From: Candidatus Omnitrophota bacterium | GTDB taxonomy: Bacteria; Omnitrophota; Gorgyraeia; Zapsychrales; Zapsychraceae | Length of the DNA stretch: 64,000 bases | Assembly (NCBI GenBank): GCA_029261055.1 | Contig: JAJDCA010000038.1 | Coordinates: forward strand, 9,619-73,618 | Reading direction: 5' to 3' | Part shown: one piece after another, positions 5,073-51,080 of the stretch | How positions within the stretch are numbered: the first letter of the stretch is position 1 | Layout of the letters: the number at the start of each line of letters is the position of its first letter | Notes under the pieces: generated by a model | Database searches by the model: none | Told to the model about the DNA's origin: nothing | The model's input: only the letters and a program-made list of their open reading frames with translations | Position numbers and translations under genes: made by a program

Positions 5073-6362
5073 ATGATTAAATCATCAAAAATTCTTTATG
5101 GAATATGTATTATTCTATTTTTTCTTTTCATCCGTATTTCTGACTCCCTTGCTGATAATTTAACAGATGAAGCGGCTCAATTATTTGACCAATGGCGAAG
5201 CGCTGTTTTTCAAGTCCGTGTCATTGATTTATCCACTCAAGAAAAATCTTCAACTGGATCTGGATTTTTTATTGACCCCAAGGGTTATGCCGTGACTAAC
5301 TATCATGTGGTCTCGTCCTATGTAAATAAACCAAGTAATCATAAAATTGAAATCATTAATCATGCAGGGGACATACAGGATCTTTCCTTGGTCTATTTTG
5401 ATATTGTCCATGACCTTGCTATTTTAACCACAAAAAAAGCCTCCCCCTTAACCTTATTGCTGAATCAGTCTGATCTTTCTCATGGAGAGAAAATTTTTTC
5501 CATGGGAAACCCGCATGACTTAGGTATGACCATTATCGAAGGAACATTTAATGGTTTAATGAAACAATCCTTAGACCGTAGGATCCTTTTCTCCGGATCC
5601 CTTAATCCTGGAATGAGTGGCGGCCCTACCCTTAATCATGAAGGAAAAATTATCGGAATTAATGTCTCAACAATGAACAATGATGTTAGCTTTCTTGTTC
5701 CTGTGGAATATTTAAATGCTTTAGTAGCTAAAATCGAACAAGAACCTGTTTTGCCTAACACAAATTGGGATCAACTAATCGAAAATCAATTAATTGAAAA
5801 TCAAGATCACTTTATCAATACTTACCTTAAACAAGAATGGCAAACTTCTAAACTTGGGGATGCCATCATTCCAGGAGAAATTTCCCCTTATGTAAAATGC
5901 TGGGGAGGCTCTAAAAACAGAGATGAAGATCTAATGATTAAAGCCATGACCAATTGTAGTACAGAAGATTATATTTATGTTAACGATTATTTTTATACAT
6001 CTTACTTGGATTATCGTTTCTCTTGGCATGAAAGTAAAAACCTTCATTTCCTTAGACTTTATGCCCATCTTCAGGATGATTTCCCAAAAATTAATTATTT
6101 AAATAATGCATCAAAAACTGATGTTGAACGATTTAAATGCCAAACTGATTTTGTTACCATGGATAACCGCGTTTTTAAAACAGCTTTGTGTTCCCGAAGA
6201 TATAAACGTTTTAAAAAATTGTATGATGTCAGTTTAGATTTTATGTCTGTAGACGAATATGATCGTTCATTAATGGGGGGATTAATATTAGAAGGTGTCA
6301 CAAAAACTAAAAGCCAAGAATTTATTAAATATTTTATGGAAAAAATACAATGGAAAAATTAG
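5073..6362 (+). CDS. Secreted trypsin-like (S1) serine protease with a C-terminal domain of unknown function
   Basis: Signal peptide. Catalytic triad context NYHVV (His), DLAIL (Asp) and GMSGGP (Ser). There is no PDZ domain. The roughly 200-aa C-terminal extension is unrecognised. Confidence 0.65.
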   Translation: MIKSSKILYGICIILFFLFIRISDSLADNLTDEAAQLFDQWRSAVFQVRVIDLSTQEKSSTGSGFFIDPKGYAVTNYHVVSSYVNKPSNHKIEIINHAGDIQDLSLVYFDIVHDLAILTTKKASPLTLLLNQSDLSHGEKIFSMGNPHDLGMTIIEGTFNGLMKQSLDRRILFSGSLNPGMSGGPTLNHEGKIIGINVSTMNNDVSFLVPVEYLNALVAKIEQEPVLPNTNWDQLIENQLIENQDHFINTYLKQEWQTSKLGDAIIPGEISPYVKCWGGSKNRDEDLMIKAMTNCSTEDYIYVNDYFYTSYLDYRFSWHESKNLHFLRLYAHLQDDFPKINYLNNASKTDVERFKCQTDFVTMDNRVFKTALCSRRYKRFKKLYDVSLDFMSVDEYDRSLMGGLILEGVTKTKSQEFIKYFMEKIQWKN

Positions 6363-7285
6363 TCATTGAAGTTATTAAACCAGGAAAAATGCACAATGAA
6401 TTTTGTGTATTCACTGGATCAACCATTCGTATTGGTCGTGGATTTAATAATGATGTCATTCTTGATGATGCCTTTGTTTCTTCTGAACATTGTGAAATTA
6501 TACGTGATGATGAAGGCATAAAAATAAAAGACTTAAACAGTAAAAATGGCATTTACAACATTAAAGCTAAACAAATCCAGACGGACCTGGCCATCCATTC
6601 AGGTGATAAATTTATTGTGGGCCGTACTGAATTGAGAGTTTATCTCTCTTCCCACACAGTTAAACCAGCTCGCCCACTTATCCCCCGACATAAAATCATC
6701 ACTGCACTTAGAAAACCAATAACAGCGTGGATTTTGTTTTCTTTATTAAGCGCTCTGGCCTATTTGACGGGAGTCATCACAACGATAGAAAACGGTAAAC
6801 AAGGACAGATAATATTAACAGCCGTTGTTATTACCGGTATTATGATCTTCTGGGCGGGATTTTGGGCTATTATTGGATGGATTAGCCGCCATAGATTGCG
6901 TTTTGGCATTCAATTGTCCATTGCCTGCCTCTGGTACATCCTTTATATGCTATGCTCATTTATTATTGATTATGCTGCTTTTTATTTTAACCGTAACCTT
7001 TTGTATGTCATTTTGATGGGGCTGTGTTTTACAATGATCACAATTTTAGGATATTTAGGACATCTGCACTTTGCCACACGGATGAAAACAAAAACAAAAA
7101 TAATTTCGGCGACTGTGATTACATTAATTATGTTGGGCCTATCCGGCGTGATTATGAACTTTTATCATGAATCTCAATATCTTCAAAAAGAATACTCTAG
7201 CTCTGTTAATCCTCCCTACCTTGGAAATCCCCCTGCTCATTCCATCGAAGAATTTATTCAAAAAACAAATAAAATTTTTGAATAA
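6350..7285 (+). CDS. FHA-domain membrane protein
   Basis: N-terminal FHA signature (IRIGRGFNNDVILDD..VSSEHCEI...DLNSKNG) followed by about 6 predicted TM helices. It overlaps the protease gene by 13 nt. Confidence 0.6.
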   Translation: MEKLVIEVIKPGKMHNEFCVFTGSTIRIGRGFNNDVILDDAFVSSEHCEIIRDDEGIKIKDLNSKNGIYNIKAKQIQTDLAIHSGDKFIVGRTELRVYLSSHTVKPARPLIPRHKIITALRKPITAWILFSLLSALAYLTGVITTIENGKQGQIILTAVVITGIMIFWAGFWAIIGWISRHRLRFGIQLSIACLWYILYMLCSFIIDYAAFYFNRNLLYVILMGLCFTMITILGYLGHLHFATRMKTKTKIISATVITLIMLGLSGVIMNFYHESQYLQKEYSSSVNPPYLGNPPAHSIEEFIQKTNKIFE

Positions 7286-7308
7286 AAGAACTAGAGCCAC
7301 CCCGTTTT

Positions 7309-7590
7309 TTATTCATATTCACACAGGTAAGCTGTATCTTGTTCAACCTTTGTTTTGAATTTTGATGCCGCAGGAATTTCAAAAGATGCGCCCACACCAA
7401 AATCTTCCCATTCATCATATTCAGCGAAATACACCGTTAAGGCTCCGGAAACCACCGTGATAACTTCTTTTGTTGTTGTATCAAATTCATACTCGCCCGG
7501 TTCCATAACCCCGATGGTCTTTCGATTGTCACCTGAATTAATACCGAAAGATTTCACCTTCCCTTCAAAATACTCCTTTACTTCAACCAT
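7309..7590 (-). CDS. ppnP: Pyrimidine/purine nucleoside phosphorylase PpnP (YaiE, DUF1255)
   Basis: 93 aa. EYFEGKVKS...GVMEPGEYEF...VVSGAL...YLCEY closely parallels E. coli YaiE. Confidence 0.75.
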   Translation of the reverse strand: MVEVKEYFEGKVKSFGINSGDNRKTIGVMEPGEYEFDTTTKEVITVVSGALTVYFAEYDEWEDFGVGASFEIPAASKFKTKVEQDTAYLCEYE

Positions 7591-7595
7591 TTCTC

Positions 7596-9266
7596 TTACT
7601 CCTTTTCTTTTTTTACAGGGCCAATGCCCCTTATTTTTTTAATAATACTTTCTGCAACCTTCATTCCATCAACCGCCGAAGAGACAATGCCTCCGGCATA
7701 TCCGGCACCTTCACCTGTAGGATAAACACCTGCAATAGTCGACTGAAAAAACTCATCCCGCGTAAATCTAACAGGAGAAGAACTCCGCGTTTCAACACCT
7801 ACAAGCACAGCATCCGGATAAGCAAAACCCTTAATCTTTCTATCCAGAGCAGGAAGCGCCTCTTTTATACTTTCAATAACATAATAAGGCAAGCACTCAT
7901 CTAACAAAGTCATCTTTACACCCGGTTCATACGTCGAAGACACTTCCCCGGAAGCTTTGGAAGGCTCTCCTTTTAAAAAATCACCAACGCGTTGAGCAGG
8001 AGCGCTGTAATTCTTTCCTCCCGCCACAAAAGCCTTTCGCTCCCACTTACGCTGAAATTCAATCCCCGCAAGAGGATGCTCAGACTCAAAATCATCCGGC
8101 GAAATATTCACGAGCAAGGCACTATTAGAATTTTGACCATCCTGAGCACATTCACTCATGCCATTTGTCACAACCCCACCTTCCTCTGAAGAAGAGGCCA
8201 CGACAAAACCTCCGGGACACATACAAAAAGTATACACCGAACGCTTGCCTTTAAGGTGGGCCACCAGTTTATATCTTGCCGTCGATAGCTTTGGATTATT
8301 ACAACAATGGCCATACTGAGATTTATTGATCAATTCCGTAGGATGTTCAATTCTAAGACCGACAGCAAATGACTTGGGTTTCATCCCGATTTCCTTATCA
8401 TAAAGCATTTGATAGGTATCCCGGGCAGAATGACCGATCGCAAGAATAAGATTATCTACCAGGATTTTCTCCTGACCATCAAAAATCGCCGCCGCAACTT
8501 TTTGATTTTCAATTTCTATATTCGTAAGGCACGTATGAAACCGCACCTCCCCCTTCAAACTTATTATCTTCTCACGTATTTTCTTTACAACCCCACGTAA
8601 TTTATCGGTCCCGATATGCGGATGGGCATCCGTCGCAATTCTTTGAGGAGCTCCCGCTTTGATAAATTCATCAAAGACATACTTCATCCTTGAATTCTTT
8701 ATATTGGTATACAATTTACCATCAGAAAAAGTACCTGCCCCACCCTCACCAAATTGCACATTTGAATTGATGTTCAGCTTACCGGATGAAAAAAATCGCC
8801 CCACATCTTTAACACGCGCATCAACATCGCCACCACGGTCAATAACCAAAGGCCTTAACCCCGCCTCAGCCAAAACTAAAGCACAGAACAATCCACTCGG
8901 ACCTGTACCAACGACAATAGGACGAGACACATTGTTAGAAGGAATTTCTTGAATTTCATAAAAGTAGGGTTCCTGTAAGCGTATTTTATGACGAAGAGCT
9001 TTCTTTTTTCTTACTGCAGAAGATTGTGCTTGTGGAGAAAAATAACTTTTAAGATTTTTTATTTGGACATTAACAGAATAGACTAAAAGGATATTATCTT
9101 TTTTACGTGAATCAATGGCTCTTTTTACAATAGCATAACCGACAAGCTCGCCTCGATTGATCCCTAAAATCTTTACAATTTTTCCTTCTAAAACGTCCTC
9201 TCCCTGATCAAGATTAAGGGTGATTTCTTCAATTCTAATAGAACTATTTTTGGAAATATCGGCCAT
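7596..9266 (-). CDS. FAD-dependent dehydrogenase (COG2509-type)
   Basis: Rossmann motif VVGTGPSGLFCALVLAEAG. Length and architecture are typical of the uncharacterised FAD-dependent protein family. Confidence 0.55.
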   Translation of the reverse strand: MADISKNSSIRIEEITLNLDQGEDVLEGKIVKILGINRGELVGYAIVKRAIDSRKKDNILLVYSVNVQIKNLKSYFSPQAQSSAVRKKKALRHKIRLQEPYFYEIQEIPSNNVSRPIVVGTGPSGLFCALVLAEAGLRPLVIDRGGDVDARVKDVGRFFSSGKLNINSNVQFGEGGAGTFSDGKLYTNIKNSRMKYVFDEFIKAGAPQRIATDAHPHIGTDKLRGVVKKIREKIISLKGEVRFHTCLTNIEIENQKVAAAIFDGQEKILVDNLILAIGHSARDTYQMLYDKEIGMKPKSFAVGLRIEHPTELINKSQYGHCCNNPKLSTARYKLVAHLKGKRSVYTFCMCPGGFVVASSSEEGGVVTNGMSECAQDGQNSNSALLVNISPDDFESEHPLAGIEFQRKWERKAFVAGGKNYSAPAQRVGDFLKGEPSKASGEVSSTYEPGVKMTLLDECLPYYVIESIKEALPALDRKIKGFAYPDAVLVGVETRSSSPVRFTRDEFFQSTIAGVYPTGEGAGYAGGIVSSAVDGMKVAESIIKKIRGIGPVKKEKE

Positions 9267-9272
9267 TAATTT

Positions 9273-10103
9273 TTACGCAACTCTTAGCTGCCCCTGATCA
9301 ATCGTAATTTTACGTTCTTTGTACAAAAGCCCCACGGCCATTTTATATTTCTTTTTACTCACTCCAAATGTATCGGCAATCAAATCCGAATCACTCTTAT
9401 CCGTAATTTTTGATACCCCGCCATTAGCCTTCATGTACGCCAAAATTTTTTCTGACAAATCATCAGGTTTTTGATACCCCTGCTTGTCGAGACAAAGATC
9501 AATTTTCTGATCTTCTCTCATTTTCTTGATGTAACCCTTAACTTTTTGACCAACACTCAATTCTTGAAAAACTTCACCCGCATACAAAAGCCCCATATGT
9601 TGATTATTGATAATCGCATTGTATCCCAAGGCCGTTTGCTCACAAATCAAAAGATCCACAGGATCATTTTCGGAATAAGCCATATTTTCCGTATCGATAA
9701 ATTTTTCAAGATCCGACGATGCCGCAATACGCTCCCTTTCTTCATCATAAAATATCTTAACAACATACGATTCGCCCAATACCATCTTTTCAATTTGCTC
9801 GCTAAAGGGCACAAACAAATCCTTAGGCATGCCCCAATCTAAAAAAGTCCCCACAGAAGCCACATCGACCACCTTTAAATACGCAAACTCACCGACATAC
9901 CCCATAGGCCAACGCAGCGTTACAGTCATTTGATCATTATTATCACTGTAAAGAAAGACTTCTATCCAATCGCCTTTTTTGTAATTCCCTTGAACTTCTT
10001 CGGCAGGAAGTAGCATCATACCAAATTCTTTGGCGTCCAGATATAAACCCAAATCTACAACATCCTTCACTTCTAATTTATTAATTTTTCCGATTTCAAT
10101 CAT
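9273..10103 (-). CDS. cvfB: S1-domain RNA-binding protein CvfB/YitL family
   Basis: Tandem S1-like segments (GDWIEVFLYSD..., KVVDVASVGTFLDWGMPKDLFVPFSE) resemble B. subtilis YitL. Confidence 0.65.
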   Translation of the reverse strand: MIEIGKINKLEVKDVVDLGLYLDAKEFGMMLLPAEEVQGNYKKGDWIEVFLYSDNNDQMTVTLRWPMGYVGEFAYLKVVDVASVGTFLDWGMPKDLFVPFSEQIEKMVLGESYVVKIFYDEERERIAASSDLEKFIDTENMAYSENDPVDLLICEQTALGYNAIINNQHMGLLYAGEVFQELSVGQKVKGYIKKMREDQKIDLCLDKQGYQKPDDLSEKILAYMKANGGVSKITDKSDSDLIADTFGVSKKKYKMAVGLLYKERKITIDQGQLRVA

Positions 10104-10246
10104 TATTTATTCCTTTTTTGCATAACGATCCGTACTTTTCCAGGTATAAAAAAACCCCTCTCTTATTTAAAGGGGACATCTACAACCTCTTTCTGGGGAA
10201 ACCCTTAACTTTCTAAGTGGAAAGTATAATCTTTTTCTTCATCTTG

Positions 10247-10474
10247 TCAATCTTGAATAAAACGAAACCTTGGAAATTCTTTTCCCTCAACAATAACGTT
10301 CTCTGAAAACATAACCCGCGGCCGAACCCAAAGCGAATCTTCCCCAAATTCTGTTTTATACAAAGCCTTATAAACAACCAATTCCTCAACAGTTTCACTA
10401 TGATGCGCCACACCAATCACCTCATACCGTTTTCCTTTGTAATGCTCATATATTCCTTTTTGCATCTCTTCCAT
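10247..10474 (-). CDS. DUF1653 domain protein
   Basis: YEHYKGKRYEVIGVAHHSET...LVVY..LY...LWVRP is the DUF1653 signature. Confidence 0.6.
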   Translation of the reverse strand: MEEMQKGIYEHYKGKRYEVIGVAHHSETVEELVVYKALYKTEFGEDSLWVRPRVMFSENVIVEGKEFPRFRFIQD

Positions 10475-10496
10475 AAAGAAATCCTTTGTTCATGCG

Positions 10497-11216
10497 TTAT
10501 AAAAATTTAACAAAACTCATACCCAAGCCGATCAATCCACCAAATACGCCACCCCAGACAACAAGCCAGCCAAGATGTTTGCGGATCATTTCTTGAATAA
10601 TTTCTTTCACCATTTTAGGTGTAAGTTCATTCAGCCGTACATCGACAATTTCTTCAACCTTCTTAACAACTTCGGAACTGAGATGCGATGGAAGAATATT
10701 TTCCTCAAGAGCTTTAAGAAACGCTTCTGTTTTCGTTAAATCATGAACTTTAATTTTGATCTTCTCAATAAACGGTGCCCGCATCGGCTCAAGCGCTTTA
10801 ATCCCACCAAACATACCCAACATGCTGCCAAAATTTGACTTAGCCACCACTTCCAGCAGCCCGTTAAATACTTCATCAAAATTAATGGCACTAATCAAAG
10901 GATCAAAATTCATATGCGCAACGGTTGAATTCTTTTGCCCTTGAAAAAAACGATCCACATTCTCATCTGTAAAAAATTCCGACATGATCAAATGTTTAAT
11001 CCCCGCTTTAAATTCAATAAACCGACTTGGAATCACCCCTGACCCATACAAAAACGGAACCTTCTCAAACAACATATAAATCGCCAACCAATTAGTAACC
11101 GCCCCTGAAAACGCAAAAAACCCAACAGAAAGAATCTGCTCCCTATAAACCGGCGAAAAATACCCCACGATAATCGTGAGAATAGCTATTACGTTCGTAA
11201 TAAGACTTTTATTCAT
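10497..11216 (-). CDS. DUF445 family membrane protein
   Basis: N-terminal TM helix and a GAVTNWLAI.MLF...P.G.G.IP block. Confidence 0.5.
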   Translation of the reverse strand: MNKSLITNVIAILTIIVGYFSPVYREQILSVGFFAFSGAVTNWLAIYMLFEKVPFLYGSGVIPSRFIEFKAGIKHLIMSEFFTDENVDRFFQGQKNSTVAHMNFDPLISAINFDEVFNGLLEVVAKSNFGSMLGMFGGIKALEPMRAPFIEKIKIKVHDLTKTEAFLKALEENILPSHLSSEVVKKVEEIVDVRLNELTPKMVKEIIQEMIRKHLGWLVVWGGVFGGLIGLGMSFVKFL

Positions 11217-11234
11217 GTGTGTACATCCTTATGT

Positions 11235-11369
11235 TAGTAGATTTTTATTTTTTCACGGACTCTTGAATTTGAAAAACGATAACCCTTTTAGCCGCTGAGG
11301 CTTGAGATTCTTCTAAAACTCCTTCTTGTTGAAGAAAATCATCAAAACTACTTCCGATATGTTTATTTT
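11235..11369 (-). pseudogene. Truncated HigA-family antitoxin-like N-terminal fragment (copy 1)
   Basis: 44-aa ORF MIKKNKHIGSSFDDFLQQEGVLEESQASAAKRVIVFQIQESVKK. This matches only the N-terminal portion of about 95-aa HigA-type HTH antitoxins. A second copy with about 85% nt identity lies at 12449..12595. Confidence 0.4.
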
Positions 11370-11470
11370 TTTTAATCATCATTTTCCCCCTTTAACTTCC
11401 TTCATTCTACTTCTAGCAATATCTAAATTTTCTACCAACGGCATTGCTAATGGCCAGTCAAATTGTAAAA

Positions 11471-11785
11471 TCAAGTGGTATGCAATTCGTAATGGACTCC
11501 TTCTTTTTTTTGCAAAAAAGCTAAAATTTCAAACAGATTATTGGCAGTAGGATTACCGCTGTCACTAAACATTCTCATGACACTTTTAGATTCTTTATGT
11601 ATAAATTTTCCTAATTTCTCAAAGCCGATCGTTGCATTAATGTAGTCTCGAAGTAACGCTTTTCCCGTTTTTGTATCCCCTGAAATCATACGTTCAATAC
11701 TCTCTCGAAGCAATCCTTTTCGAAATTCAGGATCTCGAAGCGCGCGAGATTGAATTGTTTCTTTAAACCGACGTGTAATAGCCAT
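11471..11785 (-). CDS. Putative addiction-module antidote/XRE-like DNA-binding protein (TIGR02684-like)
   Basis: ALLRDYINATIGFEKLGKFIHKESKSVMRMFSDSGNPTANNLFEILAFL resembles antidote proteins that pair with RelE/ParE-type killers. No cognate toxin ORF was found. Confidence 0.5.
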   Translation of the reverse strand: MAITRRFKETIQSRALRDPEFRKGLLRESIERMISGDTKTGKALLRDYINATIGFEKLGKFIHKESKSVMRMFSDSGNPTANNLFEILAFLQKKEGVHYELHTT

Positions 11786-11876
11786 GCTACCCTCCTAATT
11801 TTTTTTGAATTTTATATTCTACAAGCTTAATCATAAAGTAACATATATGTTACTAATTGACAAGTTTTTATATTTG

Positions 11877-12093
11877 TAAAGGTTTAGCATTCTGTGTTAT
11901 CTGCGAGCTAAAGCATTGGTTTATTTCACGCAGGAACGCTTGTTCGCCCCTGCGGGCTCACATCACTCGACGAAAGCCCTGCGCATTCCATGCTGAACGC
12001 ATGGAAACCGGCTGCTTGGGCTTTCAACGTCCTGCTTAGAAATAAACCAATACTTTTTAACGCTCTTCGACAACTCAGAATGCTAAACCTTTA
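11877..12093. repeat. GC-rich 217-nt multi-stem palindromic element (MITE-like or structured ncRNA)
   Basis: Perfect 18-bp terminal inverted repeats TAAAGGTTTAGCATTCTG / CAGAATGCTAAACCTTTA. Nested internal stems (GGTTTATTTC/GAAATAAACC, GAAAGCCC/GGGCTTTC, CCATGC/GCATGG, GCCC..GGGC). Far higher GC than the flanks. Confidence 0.6.
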
Positions 12094-12302
12094 CGCTATT
12101 GAGCCATAGAATGTCTAAAACAATCCTCAGGGGTTTGCCCTTGTTTAACTCCAGCAATCCCCCGAGGTTTGTTGACGGTTAAAGCCACCATAAATACACC
12201 TCGCTAAACATTTACTTATATTCTTTAACAAATCCGACTATTCTAAATACAAAAAATCCCTCTCGAATTTCAATTTACGGGGAAATCAAACATTCTTGAG
12301 GG

Positions 12303-12320
12303 ATTGATACTAGTATCAAT
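12303..12320. promoter_or_regulatory. Perfect 18-bp palindrome ATTGATACTAGTATCAAT (candidate operator)
   Basis: Read directly. It lies in the 1.25-kb non-coding region between the XRE-like gene and the SDR gene. Confidence 0.35.
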
Positions 12321-12448
12321 TATTTTTCTATTTATGTCAAATTCTTAGAAATTAAATTATTGCATGTGTCTCGGGATTGAGTACTTGAAAAAATTTGTTT
12401 TATTATTTATTGAAAAATAATCGATTGCATACAGTGCCTACTTTTTTC

Positions 12449-12595
12449 TTATTTTTTTTCTTTTTTCATGCCATTTTTAATTTGAAAAACGATAACCTTC
12501 TTGGCCGCTGATGCTTGAGACTCTTCTAAAACACCTTCTTTTTGAAGAAAATCATCAAAATTACTTCCCATATGTTTATTTTTTCTTCTTTTCAA
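12449..12595 (-). pseudogene. Truncated HigA-family antitoxin-like N-terminal fragment (copy 2)
   Basis: ORF (L)KRRKNKHMGSNFDDFLQKEGVLEESQASAAKKVIVFQIKNGMKKEKK. The nucleotide sequence 12475-12595 is about 85% identical to 11265-11390. Confidence 0.4.
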
Positions 12596-13030
12596 CGATT
12601 TCTACACTTTATTAATGCCATAATGTAACAAAAATTACTATGTTCTTGTTACAAACCATGACCTAAAAATAGGAACAATCTCCGAGGTATGCCCAGCTAT
12701 CACCGAATTTACCACATTATACGAAACAAAAGAAGAAACAAACAAAGCAATTACTACGGTAATAATAGAATCTACAAAACGCTTAGGCCAGTCCTTACAA
12801 ATTTCATTACAAATTTTATTAATGCCCCTAGAAACCTTTTTTTTAATTCTTTCAATTTAATACCTCCACAAAAATTGGAAACACAATCTCAAGTAATAAT
12901 ATGTTGACAGCGTAAGAACTAAAGAAAGCAAATGACAAAAAACTATCCTCCTATTCTTTATTTGCTTATCTTCATCCCACTCTTTCTATCAATGCCCCAA
13001 CACACCAATCAAATGACTTTTCTCCTCCAC

Positions 13031-14584
13031 TCACCAATCCACTGGAAAATAGTCTTTGAGGAATTTTCCAGACCAATGTTTGCCGGTTAAAATTCCATCA
13101 AAAAATGGATCGCAGACGCGAGCGGCACCGTCTACTATGTCTAAGGGGGGTTGGAAGTCGTGCATGGTTTGTTTGCGTTCGGCGAGTGTGGCTGGGTCTT
13201 CGTCTGTTACCCATCCTGTATCGACGGCATTCATAAAAATTCCTGACTTTGCCAAATCACTCGCTGAAGTATGCGTTAGCATATTAAGAGCGGCTTTGGC
13301 CATGTTGGTATGGGGATGACGGTCTGTTTTCGTAAAGCGGTGGAACTTGCCTTCCATCGCTGAAACATTAACAATATGCTTTTGACCTGTATTCTCGCGT
13401 TTCATCATATTCGCGAATCGATTACACAAAACAAACGGGGCGATGGCATTGACCAATTGAAGCTCGATCATCTCGGCGGTGGCTATCTCTCCCAAACGTA
13501 ATCGCCAGCTGTTGGTAGCGCGTAAATCGACCTGCTGAAGATCAGAGTCCAACTTACCTTCAGGAAAAACCTGATCAGACTGAATCGCAGCATCATGTAC
13601 GTAAGAAACCTGGCTGAGTTGGGCTGAGGCATTGATACCCACGCCTTTTATTTTTCCACTCCAAGCCGTTGCCAACGCCTGACCAGCCAATTTCGGGGTA
13701 GGCCCCAACACGAGCTGTTCTTTACATTTTTGGAATGATTGCAAAAGCAACTGAGTATTACTGTCGAGCTGATCAAAAGACAATAATTCATTCGTCATCA
13801 AATGCGCATAAAAACCCGGAGGCCGTCGTACAGTCTGCGCCGCATTATTAATAAGGATGTCCAAACGATCATACGTGCTTTCAATATAATTACAAAAAAG
13901 CTCCACACTGGGCGTATGACGAAGGTCCAACCCGTAGACATGCAGACGCTCCTTCCATTGGGTAAAATCCTCTTCTTTAGAATAACGCTGAGCTGCGTCC
14001 ACGGGAAAACGTGTACTAACAATAACACGCGCCCCTGCGCGCAGCATCATCAGCGCCGACTGATAGCCAATTTTAAGACGCGCCCCGGTGATAAAAGCTG
14101 TCTGCCCTTTTAAGGAAGCACTCTGAAACCGTTTGGCATAATTAAACTCGGCACACGTCGGGCACATCGAATCATAAAAAAAATGTAGTTTTGTAAAAAG
14201 TGCCTTACAGACATAACAATTGACGGGTTTGATAAGGTGGGTTTCCTTAGCTTCATTTTCGGAACCGGCATCACCCACCTTTTGAGGTGCAATAAAAACC
14301 GTGGCCTCACGCGCACTGCGAATACCCGTAACCTTACGCGCATTTCTTTGATGTTGATCAATCCGCTTTTTCTTCAGACGTCGACTGTCCCTTTTCCTCT
14401 TGAGCATCTCCTCACGTACAGGCATCGCAAACTTCCCACAAGCCTTCATCAACGCAATCTTTTGCTCCTGAGAAAGATGCCCCATCGTAGCGCTATTGTC
14501 GACAAGGTCATTGAGCGTATCAATAACCGCCTGAATCTCAGTCTCTGTGTATTTTGACTCTGGAATGGGGTGTGAATTAGTCAC
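13031..14584 (-). CDS. Atypical SDR-family oxidoreductase with an N-terminal Cys-rich (CxxC...CxxC) extension
   Basis: Rossmann block [31 protein letters not shown] and NNAAQT. The 517-aa length is unusual for an SDR. Confidence 0.5.
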
Positions 14585-14620
14585 AAATATCTTTCTTCAA
14601 TCATAGATTGCATTAGTGGG

Positions 14621-14914
14621 TTAAGGATGCGGTGTAATCGCAATAATTGTAATTTCTTTTTTATCCGGGCCGTAATACCAAAAAATACGATAAGCCGCTG
14701 GTGTATTTTGTTCAGCATATGCTTCAAAAACCTTTTTCCCAATAAGCTTCGTTAGGCTGGTAAATTCATGTGTTTGTAAACTTGGATGGCGAGGATTTGT
14801 CTTTAAATAGGACAAAGCCCTTTTTACAGCGCTGTATCTTTTCTTAAGGCCTTTATCTTTTTTTAGCGCATCATACTGCTCTTCAGCTTCATTTGTGTAA
14901 TTAAGCGTAAACAT
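14621..14914 (-). CDS. RelE/ParE-family type II toxin
   Basis: 97 aa. The C-terminal RIFWYYGPDKKEITIIAITPHP is typical of RelE/ParE/YafQ-like toxins. It sits immediately downstream of a small antitoxin-like gene. Confidence 0.55.
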   Translation of the reverse strand: MFTLNYTNEAEEQYDALKKDKGLKKRYSAVKRALSYLKTNPRHPSLQTHEFTSLTKLIGKKVFEAYAEQNTPAAYRIFWYYGPDKKEITIIAITPHP

Positions 14915-14919
14915 TAAGT

Positions 14920-15168
14920 CTAATCTTTATCAGGATCAAATGGTTTAATTTTGCCGTTTTCAGCATCTTTCAAGCCCCTAAAAACACTGGCTAAAGCATC
15001 AGGATTTTTATAGAGCCACATTTCCCTCTCAGGAATAGCCTCCATCGGCTCCAACACAATTCTCCCATCTTCTAATTTGGCATCAAACAGTTTGGTTGAA
15101 ATGCCAGTAAGAAGCTTTCCTAATGTTACGCGATTTTGTTTGTCCAATGTAACTAACATATTATTCAC
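14920..15168 (-). CDS. AbrB/MazE/SpoVT-type antitoxin
   Basis: 82 aa. The N-terminal swapped-hairpin-like NRVTLGK...DGRIVLEP pattern. It is 5 nt upstream of the toxin gene. Confidence 0.5.
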   Translation of the reverse strand: MNNMLVTLDKQNRVTLGKLLTGISTKLFDAKLEDGRIVLEPMEAIPEREMWLYKNPDALASVFRGLKDAENGKIKPFDPDKD

Positions 15169-15274
15169 CTCACTTTTTTATTTTAACCACAATATAAGTA
15201 TACCCTATTTAGCACCATATTGTCAAATAGGTGAATCACCTATTTGACTATCTGAATAATAGTAAGCTTGAAAA

Positions 15275-17362
15275 TTATTCAAAACAAAACTTTGTCTTAT
15301 ACTCTTTATCTAGGGTAATACGTGCATCAAAAGGTTTGCCAGCTTTTGAGGTGAAGCCTTTGATTAAATCGGATTTCCCATCTTTAAAAATTTTTCTTGC
15401 CTGGGCGTGGGAGATTTTCTTGCCGGCAATGGTCCACCATAAAACAAATGGGCAGCCTTCTCTGTATTGTGCACAATAATACGCTTTACGGCCTTCTAGA
15501 ATTTGGCCTTTTTTGCATTGTGGGCATACGCCAAGACTATCTTTTTTAGAATAACCTGACTGAGACATCCGACTCGTTTGTATGATCGGCACAATCTTTT
15601 TCGTAAACGCTTCAATCTCCTGCATAAAATCTAAACCTTTTAACTTACCGTCTTGAATGGCTGCTAATTTTTGTTCCCATTGCGCGGTCAACTCAGGGCT
15701 TTTTAAATCGCTTACCACGGTATGAACTAACCGAATGCCTTTTTCCGTTGGAATGAGGCTCTTTCCTTTACGAAAGATATACTCCGATTTAAGCAAACGT
15801 TCAATCACGGATGCGCGCGTTGCCTGTGTACCAAGCCCTTGATCTTTCAGTCGGGCCGCCAAAGAACTATCATCCACTTGCCGTCCAATGTAACGCATAG
15901 CGTTTAATAACGTTCCATCTGTGTATAATTTTGGTGGAGCGGTTTCTTTTTCCTGAACATCCAGCGCGTCGATAGGACAGGTCTCTCCTTTTTTAAACTT
16001 GGCTTCCAATAGGGCCTGCACCTCAGGACGAACTGGATAAGGAGCCTGCGGATCCTTTTGATACACACGCCGCCACCCAACCTCAACGGCACGGGCGCCT
16101 TTGCATTTGAAACATTCTCCGTCAATATCCAAAATAACTTCTGTCACCTCTTCCACAAAATCCGGATGAAAAATGGAAATAAATCTTTTTTGAATCAATA
16201 AATACACCTGGCTTAATTTGTCCGAAAGAATACCTTGCTGCTTTTTCCCTGTTGGAATAATGGCATGATGGTCAGTCAATTTTTTATCGTCGATGTAATT
16301 CTTGCCAAGAACGTGCCCAGAAGACAGATACTGCAAAGATTCCTGCGCCAACGGCTGCAGAGCCTCTGGTGCATTTTTAAGAATAGCCGGTAACTGCGGT
16401 CGCATTTTCTCAGACAGATGCCGGGATTCGGTTCGAGGATACGAAATCAACTTATGTTGTTCGTACAAATTTTGCGCCAAATCCAACGTTTCCTTGGCGG
16501 TGTAACCAAATTTGTCATTACATTCCTTCTGCAAGAGCGTTAAATCATACAATGGCAATGGACCGGTTTTCCGTTTTGATTTTTTAATACCGGTAATGAC
16601 TCCGGGCTTGCCGTCCAATTTTTTCTTTAAGGCTTCTGATCTTTCTTTTGCATCAATTTTGTATCCATCTTTGTCTTCCCACCGAAAATCCACCTGACGT
16701 GTTTGGGCATGCAATTCATAATAATAAAATTTCTGAAACCCCTGAATAAGTTCATAACGATTCACAATAAGCGCCAGCGTCGGCGTTTGAACACGCCCTA
16801 CAGTATACAATTGACCATGCCGCACCGAATAGGCCCGCGTGGCATTCAGCCCCACCAACCAATCCGCAAAAGCCCGACACTGCGCCGACGTCCCTAACGG
16901 ATTAAATGATGCCCCCGGATGCAATGAACCCAAACCGTCACGAATACTTTCATCGGTTAAATCAGAAATCCACAGACGTTTAAACGGTTTTTGACACCCG
17001 CAACGTCGATAAATCCAACGAAAAATTAATTCTCCCTCACGCCCGGCATCCGTCGCATTAATAATTTCATCACAGCCATTAAATAATCGACTGATCGTAT
17101 TAAATTGATCAAGACTTTTAGGATAGGTAGCGAGTTGAAAGGCCTCCGGAATCATGGGCAGCTGGGCAAAACTCCATTTTCCACCCCACCGTTCATTCAT
17201 CACCGACGGTTCAGCAATGCCCACCAAATGACCAAAAGCCCAGGTCACCTGATACCCAGCCCCTTCCAGCCATCCATTACGCTTTTGTGATGCGCCCACC
17301 ACCCGCGCAATATCACGCGCCACACTCGGTTTTTCTGCTAATATTACTTTCATAACATGCAA
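15275..17362 (-). CDS. topB: DNA topoisomerase III
   Basis: Toprim (ILAEKPSVARDIA), the catalytic region, and C-terminal Zn-ribbon Cys pairs. Strong match to the TopB architecture. Confidence 0.85.
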   Translation of the reverse strand: MHVMKVILAEKPSVARDIARVVGASQKRNGWLEGAGYQVTWAFGHLVGIAEPSVMNERWGGKWSFAQLPMIPEAFQLATYPKSLDQFNTISRLFNGCDEIINATDAGREGELIFRWIYRRCGCQKPFKRLWISDLTDESIRDGLGSLHPGASFNPLGTSAQCRAFADWLVGLNATRAYSVRHGQLYTVGRVQTPTLALIVNRYELIQGFQKFYYYELHAQTRQVDFRWEDKDGYKIDAKERSEALKKKLDGKPGVITGIKKSKRKTGPLPLYDLTLLQKECNDKFGYTAKETLDLAQNLYEQHKLISYPRTESRHLSEKMRPQLPAILKNAPEALQPLAQESLQYLSSGHVLGKNYIDDKKLTDHHAIIPTGKKQQGILSDKLSQVYLLIQKRFISIFHPDFVEEVTEVILDIDGECFKCKGARAVEVGWRRVYQKDPQAPYPVRPEVQALLEAKFKKGETCPIDALDVQEKETAPPKLYTDGTLLNAMRYIGRQVDDSSLAARLKDQGLGTQATRASVIERLLKSEYIFRKGKSLIPTEKGIRLVHTVVSDLKSPELTAQWEQKLAAIQDGKLKGLDFMQEIEAFTKKIVPIIQTSRMSQSGYSKKDSLGVCPQCKKGQILEGRKAYYCAQYREGCPFVLWWTIAGKKISHAQARKIFKDGKSDLIKGFTSKAGKPFDARITLDKEYKTKFCFE

Positions 17363-17398
17363 GATACGAAATCGCTTTGAGCAAATATTAACACATTC

Positions 17399-17611
17399 GG
17401 CTCAGAAGAGGACTCCTTCTGGTCGCCCTCTAATTCGCCGCATGCATTAATATTTGCTTTACGCGATTATGACTCTTAATATATAAACCGTCGGTCAATT
17501 CGTCTTAACAAGAGGTTATGTTGAAGCCTGAAGGCGAATTGGACGCAGCCCCGAAGGGGACCGTCCTCTGAGCCGTAAGGCTTCAACATAACCTCCAATA
17601 GACGAATTGAC
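17399..17611. repeat. 213-nt GC-rich structured element with nested and long-range inverted repeats
   Basis: Pairs GTCAATTCGTCT/AGACGAATTGAC, GGTTATGTTGAAGCCT/AGGCTTCAACATAACC, GGCTCAGA.GAGGAC/GTCCTCTGAGCC, AATTCGCC/GGCGAATT and CCCCGAAGGGG. It lies in the leader region of topB. Confidence 0.55.
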
Positions 17612-17626
17612 TGAAAGCCTCCTAAA

Positions 17627-22765: not shown

Positions 22766-23132
22766 TACAGATATCCTTATTTGGGTTCAACGCGGAAACC
22801 TGAAAGCTGCCAAACTTATTGAAAAATCTTCTAAACGTATTATTTCTATCTTCACCTACATGGAACTTCTACAACATGCCACTTCCAAAAAACAGCATCA
22901 ATACACTAAATCTTTTTTAACGGATTACAATTTTGAAGTTCTGCCTCTTACAGAAAATATTGGTCACCGCGCACTTATCTACCTCGAAGAATATGGATTA
23001 AGCACAGGACTGTCTGCAGCTGATGCCATTATTGCGGCGACGGCCGTTGAAAGTAACCTTGCTTTAGTAAGCGGCAATCAAAAACATTTTAAGGTAATTC
23101 GCGACCTGTCCTTACAAATCTTTAAACCTTAA
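22755..23132 (+). CDS. vapC: PIN-domain toxin VapC
   Basis: MIFDTDILIW, DAIIAATAV and NQKHF carry the PIN acidic residues. Confidence 0.75.
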   Translation: MIFDTDILIWVQRGNLKAAKLIEKSSKRIISIFTYMELLQHATSKKQHQYTKSFLTDYNFEVLPLTENIGHRALIYLEEYGLSTGLSAADAIIAATAVESNLALVSGNQKHFKVIRDLSLQIFKP

Positions 23133-26100
23133 ACGATTTCAGATTTTCATTTGGATCACGAGCGAGGATGTCATGTTGTGCATTAAGCCAAGCCTCTTCG
23201 TTTGGCAAATCTGATTCGCCTAACCCAAGCAACTGCACAACCGGCACAAACGTCACCCCGCGCAAAATCGGCACAAACCCTTTCACCCGCATACTCAAAT
23301 CCGCCGGCTGCATATCAAATGGCAACGGCACGCCGCGCCCATCCCGCCTAACCTGTAAATCCAACATCGCCGCATCCAAATTAATCCCACCGAGAGCATC
23401 TATCTGCGCGTCCCCTCCCTGAAAAACATCCACACCTTCAGATAACATGGCAATATCACCTTTTTTAAAACGAAAAAAGCCTTTCTTGAAATAAGAAGAG
23501 TCTTTATATTCTTCAATTTCCATCCCCTCGCTAGAATTAATAAACAATTTAACCCCGTCTACAATATTCCACAAAAAATCCTCCCCTAAATATTCCAGCT
23601 CCTCCCCTAAAACGACATAGTTGGGATAATTAAAAACCCCTTCATATTTTTCACGAACACCTTCGATAAACATAAAAAATTTCAATCCAAGAGCCTTTTG
23701 TCTATTCTCATCAGATCTTTTTTCGGCCTTACTTTTTAACTTCAAAGAAGAAAAGAAGTCCTTTAAAGAAGGTAAAATCCCTATCATTTTCCCTGGATAT
23801 CTATTTTGAAATTTTTTAATAGCCCCCAAAATATCTCCATCCTCTAAATTACGGACAATTCCCTTAAGCATGATTCTATCCCTATCTTTTTCGTCACCTG
23901 TATCCTGTTTTATATTCTCATCCTTAGCAAACCGTACAGCAAATTGTTTTTTCCTCGAAATAATAATCGTCCTTTCTTTACGCCCGTTATATTCTTCAAA
24001 TTTAAGCTTATATTCGTTCCGATTCTTCTGATCTTGAATGATACGAACCTTTATATTTTTTTTGCTCTTGATATCATAAAATACTGTTCCATAGTACAGC
24101 CCTGTTATCCAGTCATCCTTGTGAGTTAAATTTCTAAGAAGAAAATTCTCAGCCTCATTAGTATGCTTCCCATTCATGTCTTTATTACTAACACTCTGAT
24201 ACGCATCAACAATAAATTTTCTATCTTCATTTCCCACCTGTTCATCTGTCACTTCCCCCATCATCGCAAAATCCGCCTCGCCTACTATGACGTCCAGCAT
24301 ACGGATGATGCGGTCGTAGATACTTTCCTCATAAAAATTTAAATCAGAATCTTGATCAGAATCGTAGAAATCATACTTTTTAATAATCGTCGTTAATTCT
24401 CCACCTCTAATATCCTCAATCAATTTCGACATTTGACCAACCTTACGCTGACCATTCGTCCTCATATCACTTACAAAACCTTGCCAGGATTGCCTTTCCT
24501 TTTTCCAGTATTCCTCGTCTTTTTCCAGATCACTATTCCATCCTGACCCTGATGACACCTGATATAAAGGAAAGAACCTCTCAAAATACTCGCTATCCCA
24601 CTGAGCCAGCTGATTGCCGTAATTAGCTAAATTTCTTTCCATTTCATCAACAACCATCTTTTGACCTTTAAATGTCATCTCAATAATAGTCGTCAATTCC
24701 AAGAAAATACGCCTTTCCGACAAATGTGCCGTCTTAAGTGATTCAATTAACCGTGACTTTTTCTTCTTATCAAGTACATTTATAATAATGTTCCTTAAAA
24801 AGTCTTTACCCGAATTATCTAAGCCATAGTGGTAAATATTTTTTTGTTGCAAATGATCTTCTGAAATACTTTTACCAAAAGTACCATCATCCTGAATCCT
24901 ACGGATAAAATTCGCCGTATCCTGAAACAAATCAGGATCGCTTGTTTTTATTTTCTTTAAATACGCATTAACTCTATTTTCCAACTTCTTTTTCAAGTGC
25001 GTAACGGCATTAAATATACTTGCGGTCTTCTCCTGATCACGCCCGTGATCCACATACCCAAAACTTAAATAATACCCAACACCTTCATCAAACAACACAT
25101 CCTTCCCCATCAAACGCTGCACTTCATGAACAATTTCTTCAGGAGTTGTTATTCCTGATAAAATAAAATTAGAATCGATTATCTTCCCAACAGCTTCATC
25201 GATTTCCATAAACATCGCCACATCACCCTCATTTTCTTCACTCTTCCCTAAAACCCCCTGTACTTTTTGCGTTAATTCATCGATGCTAGTAATACTAACA
25301 ACATCTTTAACATTATTATGCAGCTCCATAATCGCCTCTTTTAGATAAGGATGCGCTAAAACAAAAACTGGAATATTGCGACCTATATCATCTGCATTTA
25401 ACCACTCTAAAAAAACATCTGAAGTATAATATGCAGGCACATTTTCATCAAACACACCCTCATCAAACACTTCTCCTGCGATCACTAAATCTATTTTTGT
25501 ATCCTCATCTTTAATCACGTCACGCGCCTGTTGTTGCGTTGTGATAAAAATAAGTTCATATCCTTTATCGGACAAAGCATTTTTAATCATTTCTTGATTT
25601 TTTTCCGATTTCTCCATCACAGCAATCACCGGAAGCCCCGTCTTTTTTTTCTCCTTAACAGTTTTCATATTGCCTGTAGTCTGTGAGTTCCCATTGTTCA
25701 AAGAATTTTTAATCTTGCCAAACTTCACTTCAAAAGGCCATTCTGAATTGATAATAATCTTTGTTATTTCACGAGGCTTCTGCCCTTCACTTTTTTTTAT
25801 TTCTTCAAACGTAATATGATACGTTATATCATTCTTTGAACGAATGACTTTAATATCCGCGTCTTTATGAGTTTTGGTATCCATAAATTTATCGACATCA
25901 TCCCTCTCAATTTTAACCTCACTTAAATTATTAACTAAAAACACATCCGCCTCATTGTGATTTCTTGAATTAATCCTGGCATCAACTACATTCAATATTT
26001 TCTGAATACCCGCCTTTTCCTCCAAAGATAACTCAGCATCACGTGCTTCCCCCATCATCGCATAATCCTGAAGAACCTTAAGAACGATCTTGGCCTCTGG

Positions 26101-50688: not shown

Positions 50689-50733
50689 GAAAGTGCACGA
50701 GTTGCTTTAAAGCATAGCAACTCGTGCACTTTC
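50689..50733. other. Perfect 18-bp-stem hairpin GAAAGTGCACGAGTTGCT-(9 nt)-AGCAACTCGTGCACTTTC
   Basis: Read directly. It is flanked by two further terminator hairpins (50637..50658 and 50737..50775), all downstream of the tRNA-fMet gene. Confidence 0.6.
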
Positions 50734-50736
50734 CAT

Positions 50737-50775
50737 AAAAAAGACTCAAGCCATTACTGGCTTGAGTCTTTTTTA
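50737..50775. terminator. Bidirectional rho-independent terminator immediately 3' of tRNA-fMet
   Basis: AAAAAAGACTCAAGCC-ATTACT-GGCTTGAGTCTTTTTT, with an 11-bp stem, an A-run and a T-run. Confidence 0.7.
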
Positions 50776-50776
50776 T

Positions 50777-51080
50777 TGGTTGCGGGGACCGGATTTGAAC
50801 CGATGACCTTCAGGTTATGCATACCAACTATGGCTTTCGCCACTAGGCGACAAATTAAAAATTTGTCGCTTATTTGTGGTCTGGACTATCCCTTTACCCT
50901 TTCGGGTATCCGCCTACTAGTCTCTACACCTTCTCCGACAAACTTTTTCAAGTTTGTCTTCGTTTGGCTCGGGATTACCATGTTAAAGGCTTCCCCGAAT
51001 TTGACGGATGTTAACCAGATTGTTTCCAACCTGGGGGCCCACTTTGAGCCTGACGAGCTACCTGACTGCTCCACCCCGCG
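50777..51080 (-). tRNA. Initiator tRNA-fMet(CAU) gene interrupted by a group I intron. Exons lie at 51047..51080 and 50777..50819.
   Basis: The joined exons give CGCGGGGTGGAGCAGTCAGGTAGCTCGTCAGGCT|CATAACCTGAAGGTCATCGGTTCAAATCCGGTCCCCGCAACCA. This is 77 nt and near-identical to E. coli tRNA-fMet, including C1:A72 and three G-C pairs in the anticodon stem. The 227 nt between them separate the anticodon-loop halves. Confidence 0.85.
50820..51046 (-). ncRNA. Group I self-splicing intron (227 nt) in the tRNA-fMet anticodon loop, between U33 and C34
   Basis: The 5' exon ends in U. The intron ends in G (..GGTATG|CATAA). A GGCC guide-like sequence near the intron 5' end can pair with the exon GGCU to form P1. 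There are R-like (GTAGAGACTAGTAGG) and S-like (AAAGGGATAGTCCAGACC) core elements. No ORF lies inside. Confidence 0.75.

Follow-up and report, generated by a model that had tools for sequence, protein, structure and literature searches.

We examined a stretch of 64,000 nucleotides from the genome of a Candidatus Omnitrophota bacterium (GenBank assembly GCA_029261055.1, contig JAJDCA010000038.1, positions 9,619 to 73,618 of the forward strand). This whole stretch is called the window below, and all coordinates are counted from its first letter. The subject of our analysis is a long GC-rich hairpin at positions 11877-12093, located between a gene for a helix-turn-helix (HTH) antidote protein and an SDR gene. 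All neighbouring genes are encoded on the minus strand. On this strand, the hairpin is followed by the antidote gene (11471-11785, 104 amino acids), a 45-aa open reading frame (ORF) and the gene for a DUF445 protein. In the direction of the plus strand, the hairpin is followed by non-coding DNA and then by the SDR gene. As described below, the hairpin makes up the larger part of a 340-bp unit with inverted ends and a flanking direct repeat, which is proposed here to be a miniature inverted-repeat transposable element (MITE).

A branched hairpin with perfect closing arms

The 18 nucleotides TAAAGGTTTAGCATTCTG at 11877-11894 are the exact reverse complement of 12076-12093, as had been noticed in a preliminary inspection of the bare nucleotides (the sequence-only reading). 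A repeat search extended this match by one position on each side. With G11876 and C12094 added, the inverted repeat that closes the hairpin consists of 19 perfect base pairs, formed by the left terminal inverted repeat GTAAAGGTTTAGCATTCTG (11876-11894, plus strand) and an internal inverted copy of this end (12076-12094, minus strand). According to the same search, the closing arms are 85% complementary across 33 nt. A second pair of arms (11910-11927 and 12039-12056), which includes GGTTTATTTC/GAAATAAACC, is 94% complementary across 18 nt. Even with up to three mismatches allowed, the terminal 18-mer occurs at just two sites in the 64 kb, against 0.06 expected.

RNA and DNA folding agree on a branched structure for 11877-12093 (minus strand), with a stem of about 57 bp that contains few mismatches and closes a three-way junction. 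Stability was judged against shuffled sequences, from which the z-scores were calculated; none of 200 shuffles was equally stable. As RNA, the 217 nt fold with -96.9 kcal/mol on the plus strand (z -10.95) and with -117.0 kcal/mol on the minus strand (z -13.82). As DNA, the values are -58.8 and -65.3 kcal/mol (z -11.1 and -12.0). In a sliding scan of the window with 200-nt segments, the hairpin was among the top three or four over-structured places. The minus-strand RNA fold is thus 20 kcal/mol more stable than that of the plus strand, and it contains five G-U pairs versus none.

All the inner stems that the sequence-only reading had listed are present in the minimum free energy (MFE) folds, namely GGTTTATTTC/GAAATAAACC within the second arm pair, GCAGGA(A)CG/CGTCCTGC, GAAAGCCC/GGGCTTTC, CCATGC/GCATGG and GCCC-CTGC-GGGC. 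In the minus-strand orientation, the GC-rich core (11928-12040) has the stems GCAGGACG/CGUUCCUGC and GAAAGCCC/GGGCUUUC, and the hairpins UUUCCAUGC-GUUCA-GCAUGGAA and GCCC-GCAG-GGGC. The GC content of this 113-nt core is 58%, compared with 46.5% for the hairpin as a whole, 31% for neighbouring non-coding DNA and 38% for the window. Taken together, the hairpin is real and far beyond chance.

The Logan assembly of run SRR15505515, made independently from the same sample, is 100% identical to the window on both sides of the hairpin. Its contigs end within the hairpin, at 11960 and at 12058 (contigs L001, corresponding to 5471-11960, and L132, corresponding to 12058-17529), so that the central 97 nt (11961-12057) are supported by the source assembly alone. 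A Logan contig also ends inside an unrelated second hairpin, at 17529. The breaks are therefore attributed to hairpin-related failure of assembly or coverage, and not taken as evidence of repeats.

A 340-bp unit with inverted ends and a flanking direct repeat

The repeat search also returned a weak inverted match between the left junction of the hairpin and 12203-12221, which led to a third copy of the terminal 13-mer. This copy (GTAAATGTTTAGC, 12203-12215, minus strand) matches the left end at 12 of 13 positions, has the orientation of the right end of the hairpin and lies 121 nt to the right of it. In the 64 kb, it is the sole further match to the terminal 13-mer with at most one mismatch. 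The left end and this outer right end bound a GC-rich, non-coding unit of 340 bp (11876-12215).

The unit is flanked by an 8-bp direct repeat. The left copy, TTATATTT (11868-11875), is a candidate target-site duplication, and the right copy, TTATATTC (12216-12223), directly abuts the outer right end. The two copies agree at seven of eight positions. For a match at a fixed position, the probability of seven or more identities is about 0.0016 at local base composition. No target duplication was found around the 217-nt hairpin itself, since its right flank (GCTATTGA) is unlike the left flank. The only option for a TA duplication of the hairpin is its terminal TA, which is ambiguous because it is part of the palindrome.

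Base composition also distinguishes the unit from its surroundings. The GC content is 45.9% for the unit and 43.8% for its part to the right of the hairpin (12095-12215), versus 22.2% in the left and 26.6% in the right flank. The limits of the GC island are hence those of the outer end pair, not those of the hairpin alone. The local GC-richness of the hairpin that the sequence-only reading had pointed out is correct (46.5% versus 31% around it), except that the GC-rich block runs past the hairpin to about 12215.

The part to the right of the hairpin is itself structured. It contains a second hairpin (AACAAUCCUCAGGGG...CCCCCGAGGUUUGUU, 12118-12176, minus strand), and on the minus strand the domain 12094-12245 folds better than shuffles (z -4.3). 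For a 386-nt region holding the 217-nt hairpin and adjacent DNA, a z-score of -13.3 was obtained. When the unit and one copy of the direct repeat are removed in silico, what remains is compact and plausible: a terminator-like hairpin with a T run, about 45 nt, and an AT-rich region with the -35 box of the toxin-antitoxin promoter described below.

The unit has no credible coding capacity, as the sequence-only reading had already stated for the hairpin. It holds a 31-codon ORF (12099-12191, minus strand) with a GAGGTG Shine-Dalgarno-like sequence, whose stop codon (12096-12098) is separated from the hairpin by 2 nt. Gene calling reported this ORF in the Logan assembly alone, and its Shine-Dalgarno sequence and AUG lie inside a predicted stem. 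Neither Pfam nor NCBIfam gave a match, and the impression of a pseudouridine-synthase NKPxG motif was supported by neither database. Comparison with 1.84 billion representative proteins yielded spurious matches to multi-repeat proteins only, and no true homologue. This ORF is probably not a real gene. When the stop-free pieces of all six frames were joined to a pseudo-protein, no match at E ≤ 10 was found among 5.8 billion proteins. Excision of the hairpin restores no reading frame, and the hairpin has therefore not split a gene.

Searches for relatives of the element

A genuine copy of the element would be expected to appear as two hits in inverted orientation. In the window, the element is present once. 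Blastn searches of plasmids and phages, made with the element and with the entire 675-nt non-coding block, gave no match, and comparison of the element with all loci retrieved gave no real homologue. The exact 18-mer was found six times in the GTDB representative genomes (the source genome is not one of them), always as a single unpaired chance hit. Several of these hits fall in one Pacearchaeota gene, which we take from a translated motif to encode thioredoxin reductase. A scan of metagenome contigs with the 16-mer ends gave at least 120 chance hits among the matches listed, all unpaired, which is a weak negative. In viral contigs, three core motifs gave nothing but chance hits. Exact-protein look-ups place the organism in one sample only, SRR15505515.

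Searches for known RNA families were likewise negative. With Rfam 15 at the gathering threshold, the whole window contains only a group I intron, which lies elsewhere. With E ≤ 10 as the limit and either 801 nt or 241 nt as input, nothing was found on the element except a 15-bit chance match to a miRNA. The sequence-only reading had recognized no non-coding RNA family, and the Rfam scan agrees. Motifs resembling a hammerhead, a C/D box and group II domain V were glimpsed by eye and had no support from Rfam. None of the collections searched yielded a homologue.

A decayed toxin-antitoxin locus next to the unit

The antidote protein is a member of a very widespread family. In two homologous loci (L009 and L011), a 107-aa toxin gene is located 5 nt upstream of the antidote gene. 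In the window, a toxin-gene remnant of 15 codons (MIKLVEYKIQKKLGG*, 11787-11834, minus strand) fuses the first and last toxin codons across two EEY-coding repeats, between which the gene has been deleted. The intact toxins were compared with the window by tblastn and revealed no further toxin remnant. The toxin is thus gone from the window, which leaves the antidote an orphan. The promoter region, which has homologous counterparts in L009 and L011, has retained a -35 box (TTGTCA, 11858-11863) and an operator palindrome (AGTAACATATATGTTACT, 11837-11854), both in minus-strand orientation. The left end of the 340-bp unit lies 12 nt upstream of this -35 box.

The antidote gene and the insertion are bracketed by a 130-bp direct repeat (11242-11371 and 12455-12584, 88% identical), which carries two paralogous mini-ORFs, the 45-aa ORF (11245-11382) and a 48-aa ORF (12449-12595, minus strand). 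Neither mini-ORF matched Pfam or NCBIfam; presumably they resemble the N-terminal part of HTH antitoxins. The stretch of 1.25 kb around the hairpin, described as gene-free in the sequence-only reading, therefore needs correction, because it holds the toxin remnant, the 31-codon ORF and the 48-aa ORF.

Between the 48-aa ORF and the unit, a promoter-like site on the minus strand (TTGACA, 17 nt, GATACT; 12340-12312) overlaps a perfect palindrome (ATTGATACTAGTATCAAT, 12303-12320). Immediately after it comes a hairpin that resembles a terminator and has a T run (12305-12245, minus strand). Two readings of the region 12245-12340 are conceivable: a promoter under operator control that is followed by a leader terminator, or no more than the terminator that belongs to the 48-aa ORF. 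Several further palindromes near the hairpin are unrelated to it.

The locus is a variable, horizontally acquired islet of toxin-antitoxin modules and paralogous mini-ORFs. Homologues of the antidote gene are found beside ArdA in L009 and beside a relaxase with TraD in L011. No comparable hairpin is present upstream of these two intact toxin-antitoxin loci. In L009 (1040-1290), a GC-richer region of 280 nt upstream of the toxin-antitoxin promoter shows moderate structure as DNA (z -3.4); a long hairpin is absent from it, and there is no similarity to the 217-nt element. In the closest relative that we found (81% identity for the DUF445 neighbour), different genes occupy the position of the hairpin. 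As the closest relatives carry other genes there, no orthologous site is available for comparison.

Elsewhere, the window has the genes of an ordinary chromosome, such as topA and those for an efflux pump, enolase, an FtsH-like protease, glycogen enzymes and a XerC/D-like recombinase. Among the genes of the 64 kb, we found no transposase, reverse transcriptase, integron integrase, conjugation, relaxase, ssb or anti-restriction gene.

Other features of the window

Two long hairpins are arranged in tandem upstream of topA on the minus strand (17355-17485, z -8.3; 17490-17615, z -11.9). Each has an AT-rich outer stem and a GC-rich tip, which in the second hairpin contains a cUUCGg tetraloop (minus strand). 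In sequence they are unlike the 217-nt hairpin, and neither matched Rfam. About 20 nt separate the 3' arm of the first one from the codon at which topA probably starts, and the stretch that folds directly adjoins this codon.

An initiator tRNA-Met gene (CGCGGGGTGGAGCAG...GGTTCAAATCCGGTCCCCGCAACCA, 50777-51080, minus strand) is interrupted in the anticodon loop by the group I intron mentioned above (Rfam RF00028, 52.5 bits, 50867-51065). The tRNA gene was not called by ARAGORN. Group I introns in such a tRNA arrangement are known mainly from cyanobacteria. Directly downstream of the split tRNA gene, two perfect hairpins stand back to back (50689-50733 and 50735-50776, with stems of 18 bp and 19 bp). 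The one at 50735-50776 is followed by a T run, and the pair represents the most over-structured 200 nt of the window.

Near the beginning of the window, an AT-rich imperfect palindrome of about 150 nt (231-381) has 68-nt arms that are 78% complementary, and consists partly of short tandem repeats of the CTTGTTT/CTTGTAT type. A 2304-aa ORF (23122-30036, minus strand) contains no Pfam domain at E ≤ 0.001.

The unit as a proposed non-autonomous transposable element

Inverted ends, a direct repeat immediately outside them and a sharp composition boundary, in DNA that codes for nothing and whose removal gives a clean "empty site", form the classical signature of a transposase-mediated insertion. 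We therefore propose that a non-autonomous transposable element (MITE) with IS66-like ends spans 11876-12215, and that the 217-nt hairpin accounts for most of it. We would give this reading roughly an even chance of being right. A MITE was also one of the two explanations put forward in the sequence-only reading. The third end copy, the 8-bp repeat and the GC island strengthen that proposal, although the boundaries differ, because the unit comprises 340 bp and not just the 217-nt hairpin. Properties expected of a MITE that are found here are the terminal inverted repeats (19 bp for the hairpin, 12 of 13 positions for the outer ends), the flanking 8-bp repeat with its seven identities, and the small size, with no transposase gene of its own.

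The unit would have arrived as a short, non-coding piece of foreign, GC-richer DNA with the inverted ends GTAAAGGTTTAGC and GCTAAACATTTAC. A transposase encoded elsewhere in the genome would recognize these ends in trans. The insertion would have taken place in the AT-rich site TTATATT(T/C), which would have been duplicated by repair of an 8-bp staggered cut. On this view, the unit landed 12 nt upstream of the -35 box of the killer/antidote promoter, with the terminator-like hairpin of the upstream small gene on its other side. The 217-nt hairpin exists because the unit holds, in addition to its two ends, a 19-bp inverted copy of the left end, about 40 near-complementary bases and the three-way core. 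The internal end copy might represent an additional binding site for the transposase, or what an internal rearrangement has left behind. Any present-day effect of the unit is likeliest at the RNA level. Read-through transcripts of the minus strand would fold into the hairpin of -117 kcal/mol, and this hairpin might then serve, at the junction of the upstream unit with the antidote mRNA, as an element for RNA processing or stability.

The closest known systems are bacterial MITEs that form long hairpins, such as Correia elements of Neisseria, ERIC/IRU elements of enterobacteria, RUP and Rickettsia palindromic elements. The unit described here shares their small size (100-400 bp), lack of coding capacity, terminal inverted repeats and ability to fold as a hairpin. 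It also shares their intergenic location near a promoter, and would be co-transcribed with its neighbours. Correia and ERIC elements, which likewise form hairpins, are known to influence how RNA is processed and how stable it is. Unlike these MITEs, which have tens to hundreds of copies per genome, the element is visible in one copy, in a window of 64 kb only. Its centre is a GC-rich three-way junction and not a continued palindrome. Correia elements duplicate a TA dinucleotide, and the outermost TA at both ends of the hairpin would fit this mode. However, the better-supported duplication in our case is one of 8 bp around the 340-bp unit, not of TA around the hairpin.

The family of the transposase can be approached from the ends. 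In the IS66 family, the terminal inverted repeats are 20-30 bp long, with GTAAGCG or GTAACCG at their start, and the direct repeats measure 8 bp (PMC11946415; PMC12888890). Examples of such ends are GTAAGCGTCCGG and GTAACCGTCCGG (PMC12888890). The inverted repeats of the 340-bp unit also begin with GTAA, and the unit is flanked by an 8-bp direct repeat, if only at seven of eight positions. On the basis of this combination, an IS66-type transposase is the most likely mobilizer, which we regard as a lead and neither as a demonstration nor as an assignment to the family. Compared with the IS66 consensus GTAAGCG, the ends of the unit read GTAAAGG or GTAAATG and have the first four nucleotides alone in common with it. 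Unlike IS66 elements, the unit is not accompanied by tnpA, tnpB or tnpC in the window, and its outer ends match each other over 13 nt only.

Several observations weigh against a MITE. The element is single-copy in the 64 kb and was not encountered in the collections searched, even though multiple copies are a defining property of MITEs. The window also contains no transposase gene. The direct repeat is imperfect and has nothing but A and T, in surroundings that are themselves AT-rich. Between the left end and the outer right end the match covers 13 nt, compared with 19 nt for the internal copy, and the proposed model leaves this better pairing of the internal copy unexplained. The likeness to IS66 ends is restricted to GTAA. 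Finally, the three-way core is not palindromic and the five wobble pairs are all in favour of the minus strand, which looks more like RNA selection than like a decaying transposon.

Alternative explanations

The last point leads to the alternative that comes closest, a lineage-specific structured RNA transcribed from the minus strand, for which the transposon-like ends would be incidental. Such an RNA could be a free-standing non-coding RNA, or a structured leader of about 370 nt (12250-11877) continuing into the antidote operon. Its module for protein binding or for processing by RNase III would be formed by the long stem and the three-way core. We judge this explanation rather unlikely, with a clear minority of the probability, but it accounts for several features. 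The minus-strand fold is the more stable one and holds the five G-U pairs, and the element has the orientation of every neighbouring gene. The adjacent 150 nt fold better than shuffles as well, and the 386-nt region does so by a wide margin. The core is made of nested helices around a three-way junction and is not a plain palindrome. A promoter-like site over a perfect palindrome is present upstream (12340-12312), and the hairpin H2 at 17490-17615, with its cUUCGg tip, is on the same strand.

Against an RNA function, Rfam gave no match at any threshold, and in the absence of homologues there is no covariation to support the fold. A scan of both strands found no promoter or terminator at 11877-12093; on either strand, the hairpin has neither a promoter-like site immediately before it nor a terminator behind it. 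Perfect helices of 18 bp and 13 bp are atypical of functional bacterial RNAs, and the bias in G-U pairs (5 versus 0) is associated with a two-sided p of only about 0.06. An RNA would furthermore leave the third end copy, the 8-bp flanking repeat and the sharp composition boundaries without explanation.

Specific RNA classes fared less well. The sequence-only reading had considered a 6S-like or an insertion sequence-associated guide RNA. Like 6S RNA and other long-hairpin regulatory RNAs, the 217-nt element has a length of about 200 nt, 5' and 3' ends that pair in a long closing stem, and an irregular centre. Unlike 6S RNA, its closing stem is much longer and more perfect, it has no large open central bubble, no promoter or terminator of its own and an unusual genomic context. 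The search at E ≤ 10 with 241 nt returned neither 6S nor any other credible Rfam family, which leaves this suggestion without support. The guide RNA suggestion also failed, as searches of the window genes revealed no IS110, IS605 or IscB-type gene nearby. Accordingly, we rejected an IS110 bridge RNA and an IS605-IscB omega RNA, because no adjacent recombinase or TnpB/IscB gene is present within the window. A retron msr-msd RNA was rejected because there is no reverse transcriptase domain and no reverse transcriptase gene downstream on either strand.

A MITE and an RNA are not mutually exclusive, since a MITE transcribed by read-through would still form the hairpin. One combination is that the 340-bp block is the vehicle for a new structured RNA, a hairpin of 220-370 nt that is read from the minus strand, has the GC-rich three-way core and is selected for a job at the RNA level. 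This job might be, for example, that of a module for RNase III/degradosome processing and insulation, or that of a protein decoy. The RNA would possibly belong to the same functional class as the long GC-tipped hairpins at 17355-17615. The block, having landed beside an orphan antitoxin operon, could now be able to modulate it. We regard this combination as doubtful, and as distinctly less probable than the structured RNA discussed above.

To a similarly low degree, we consider it conceivable that the block is an inert relic, an inverted duplication or patchwork that arose from rearrangements in the decaying toxin-antitoxin islet and is neither mobile nor functional. The surroundings are indeed decaying and rearranged, with a toxin gene deleted between short repeats, the 130-bp direct repeats on both sides of the region and several unrelated palindromes close by. 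The single copy in the window and the failure to find relatives would also be natural for a relic. However, a GC content of 46% between flanks of 22-27% marks the block as foreign and not as duplicated local DNA. Its core is not a simple palindrome and yet contains several perfect local helices, both hairpin ends are perfect over 19 bp, and the 8-bp flanking repeat suggests an insertion event.

A hairpin that acts in single-stranded DNA, either as a plasmid single-strand origin or as an Frpo/ssi promoter, is very improbable. It would have been left behind by an integrated conjugative element that also delivered the toxin-antitoxin module, as might be suspected from the conjugative and anti-restriction contexts of the antidote homologues (ArdA in L009, relaxase and TraD in L011). 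Frpo elements are long hairpins upstream of leading-region genes, including toxin-antitoxin genes, and are recognized by -35/-10 hexamers (and an UP element) in the stem and by their position upstream of conjugative leading-region genes (PMC11541004). The hairpin resembles them as a long DNA hairpin directly upstream of a toxin-antitoxin type gene, and its DNA fold is very stable (z -11 to -12). Unlike in Frpo/ssi promoters, no -35/-10 pair was found in the stem on either strand, by scan or by eye, although such boxes define Frpo candidates. The surroundings are chromosomal and not conjugative: genes for transfer, a relaxase, ssb or anti-restriction are missing from the window. Blastn detected no similarity to any plasmid, and the two intact toxin-antitoxin loci have no comparable hairpin upstream.

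An integron attC-type or other site-specific recombination hairpin, in a cassette array of small genes and toxin-antitoxin modules, has a next to negligible probability: the local genes are small, co-oriented and rich in toxin-antitoxin functions, and the imperfect palindrome has GTTTAGC / GCTAAAC in its ends (6/7 match to GTTRRRY / RYYYAAC), but the idea is largely refuted by the anatomy of the element, which at 217 nt is well over the usual size (about 55-140 nt), has 18 perfect terminal base pairs and no unpaired central spacer or extrahelical bases, extends its inverted repeat 5-6 nt past the would-be R boxes, and is a single site outside any array of similar ones, with no IntI nearby and a XerC/D-like protein, 51 kb away, as the only tyrosine recombinase of the window.

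Significance

The best-supported interpretation is that the element is a new and so far single-copy member of the hairpin-forming MITEs, possibly derived from IS66, and thus of a familiar class. Very stable hairpins break short-read assemblies, as seen here at 11960/12058 and at 17529; elements of this kind are therefore under-represented in metagenome assemblies and hard to count. The importance of the hairpin would be greater only if it proved to be a conserved RNA. As a MITE, the unit would not be conceptually new. It would represent an unrecorded family of small mobile elements in an uncultured AT-rich bacterium known from one metagenome, and would be useful as an aid to annotation and as a marker of recent insertion beside a decaying toxin-antitoxin module.

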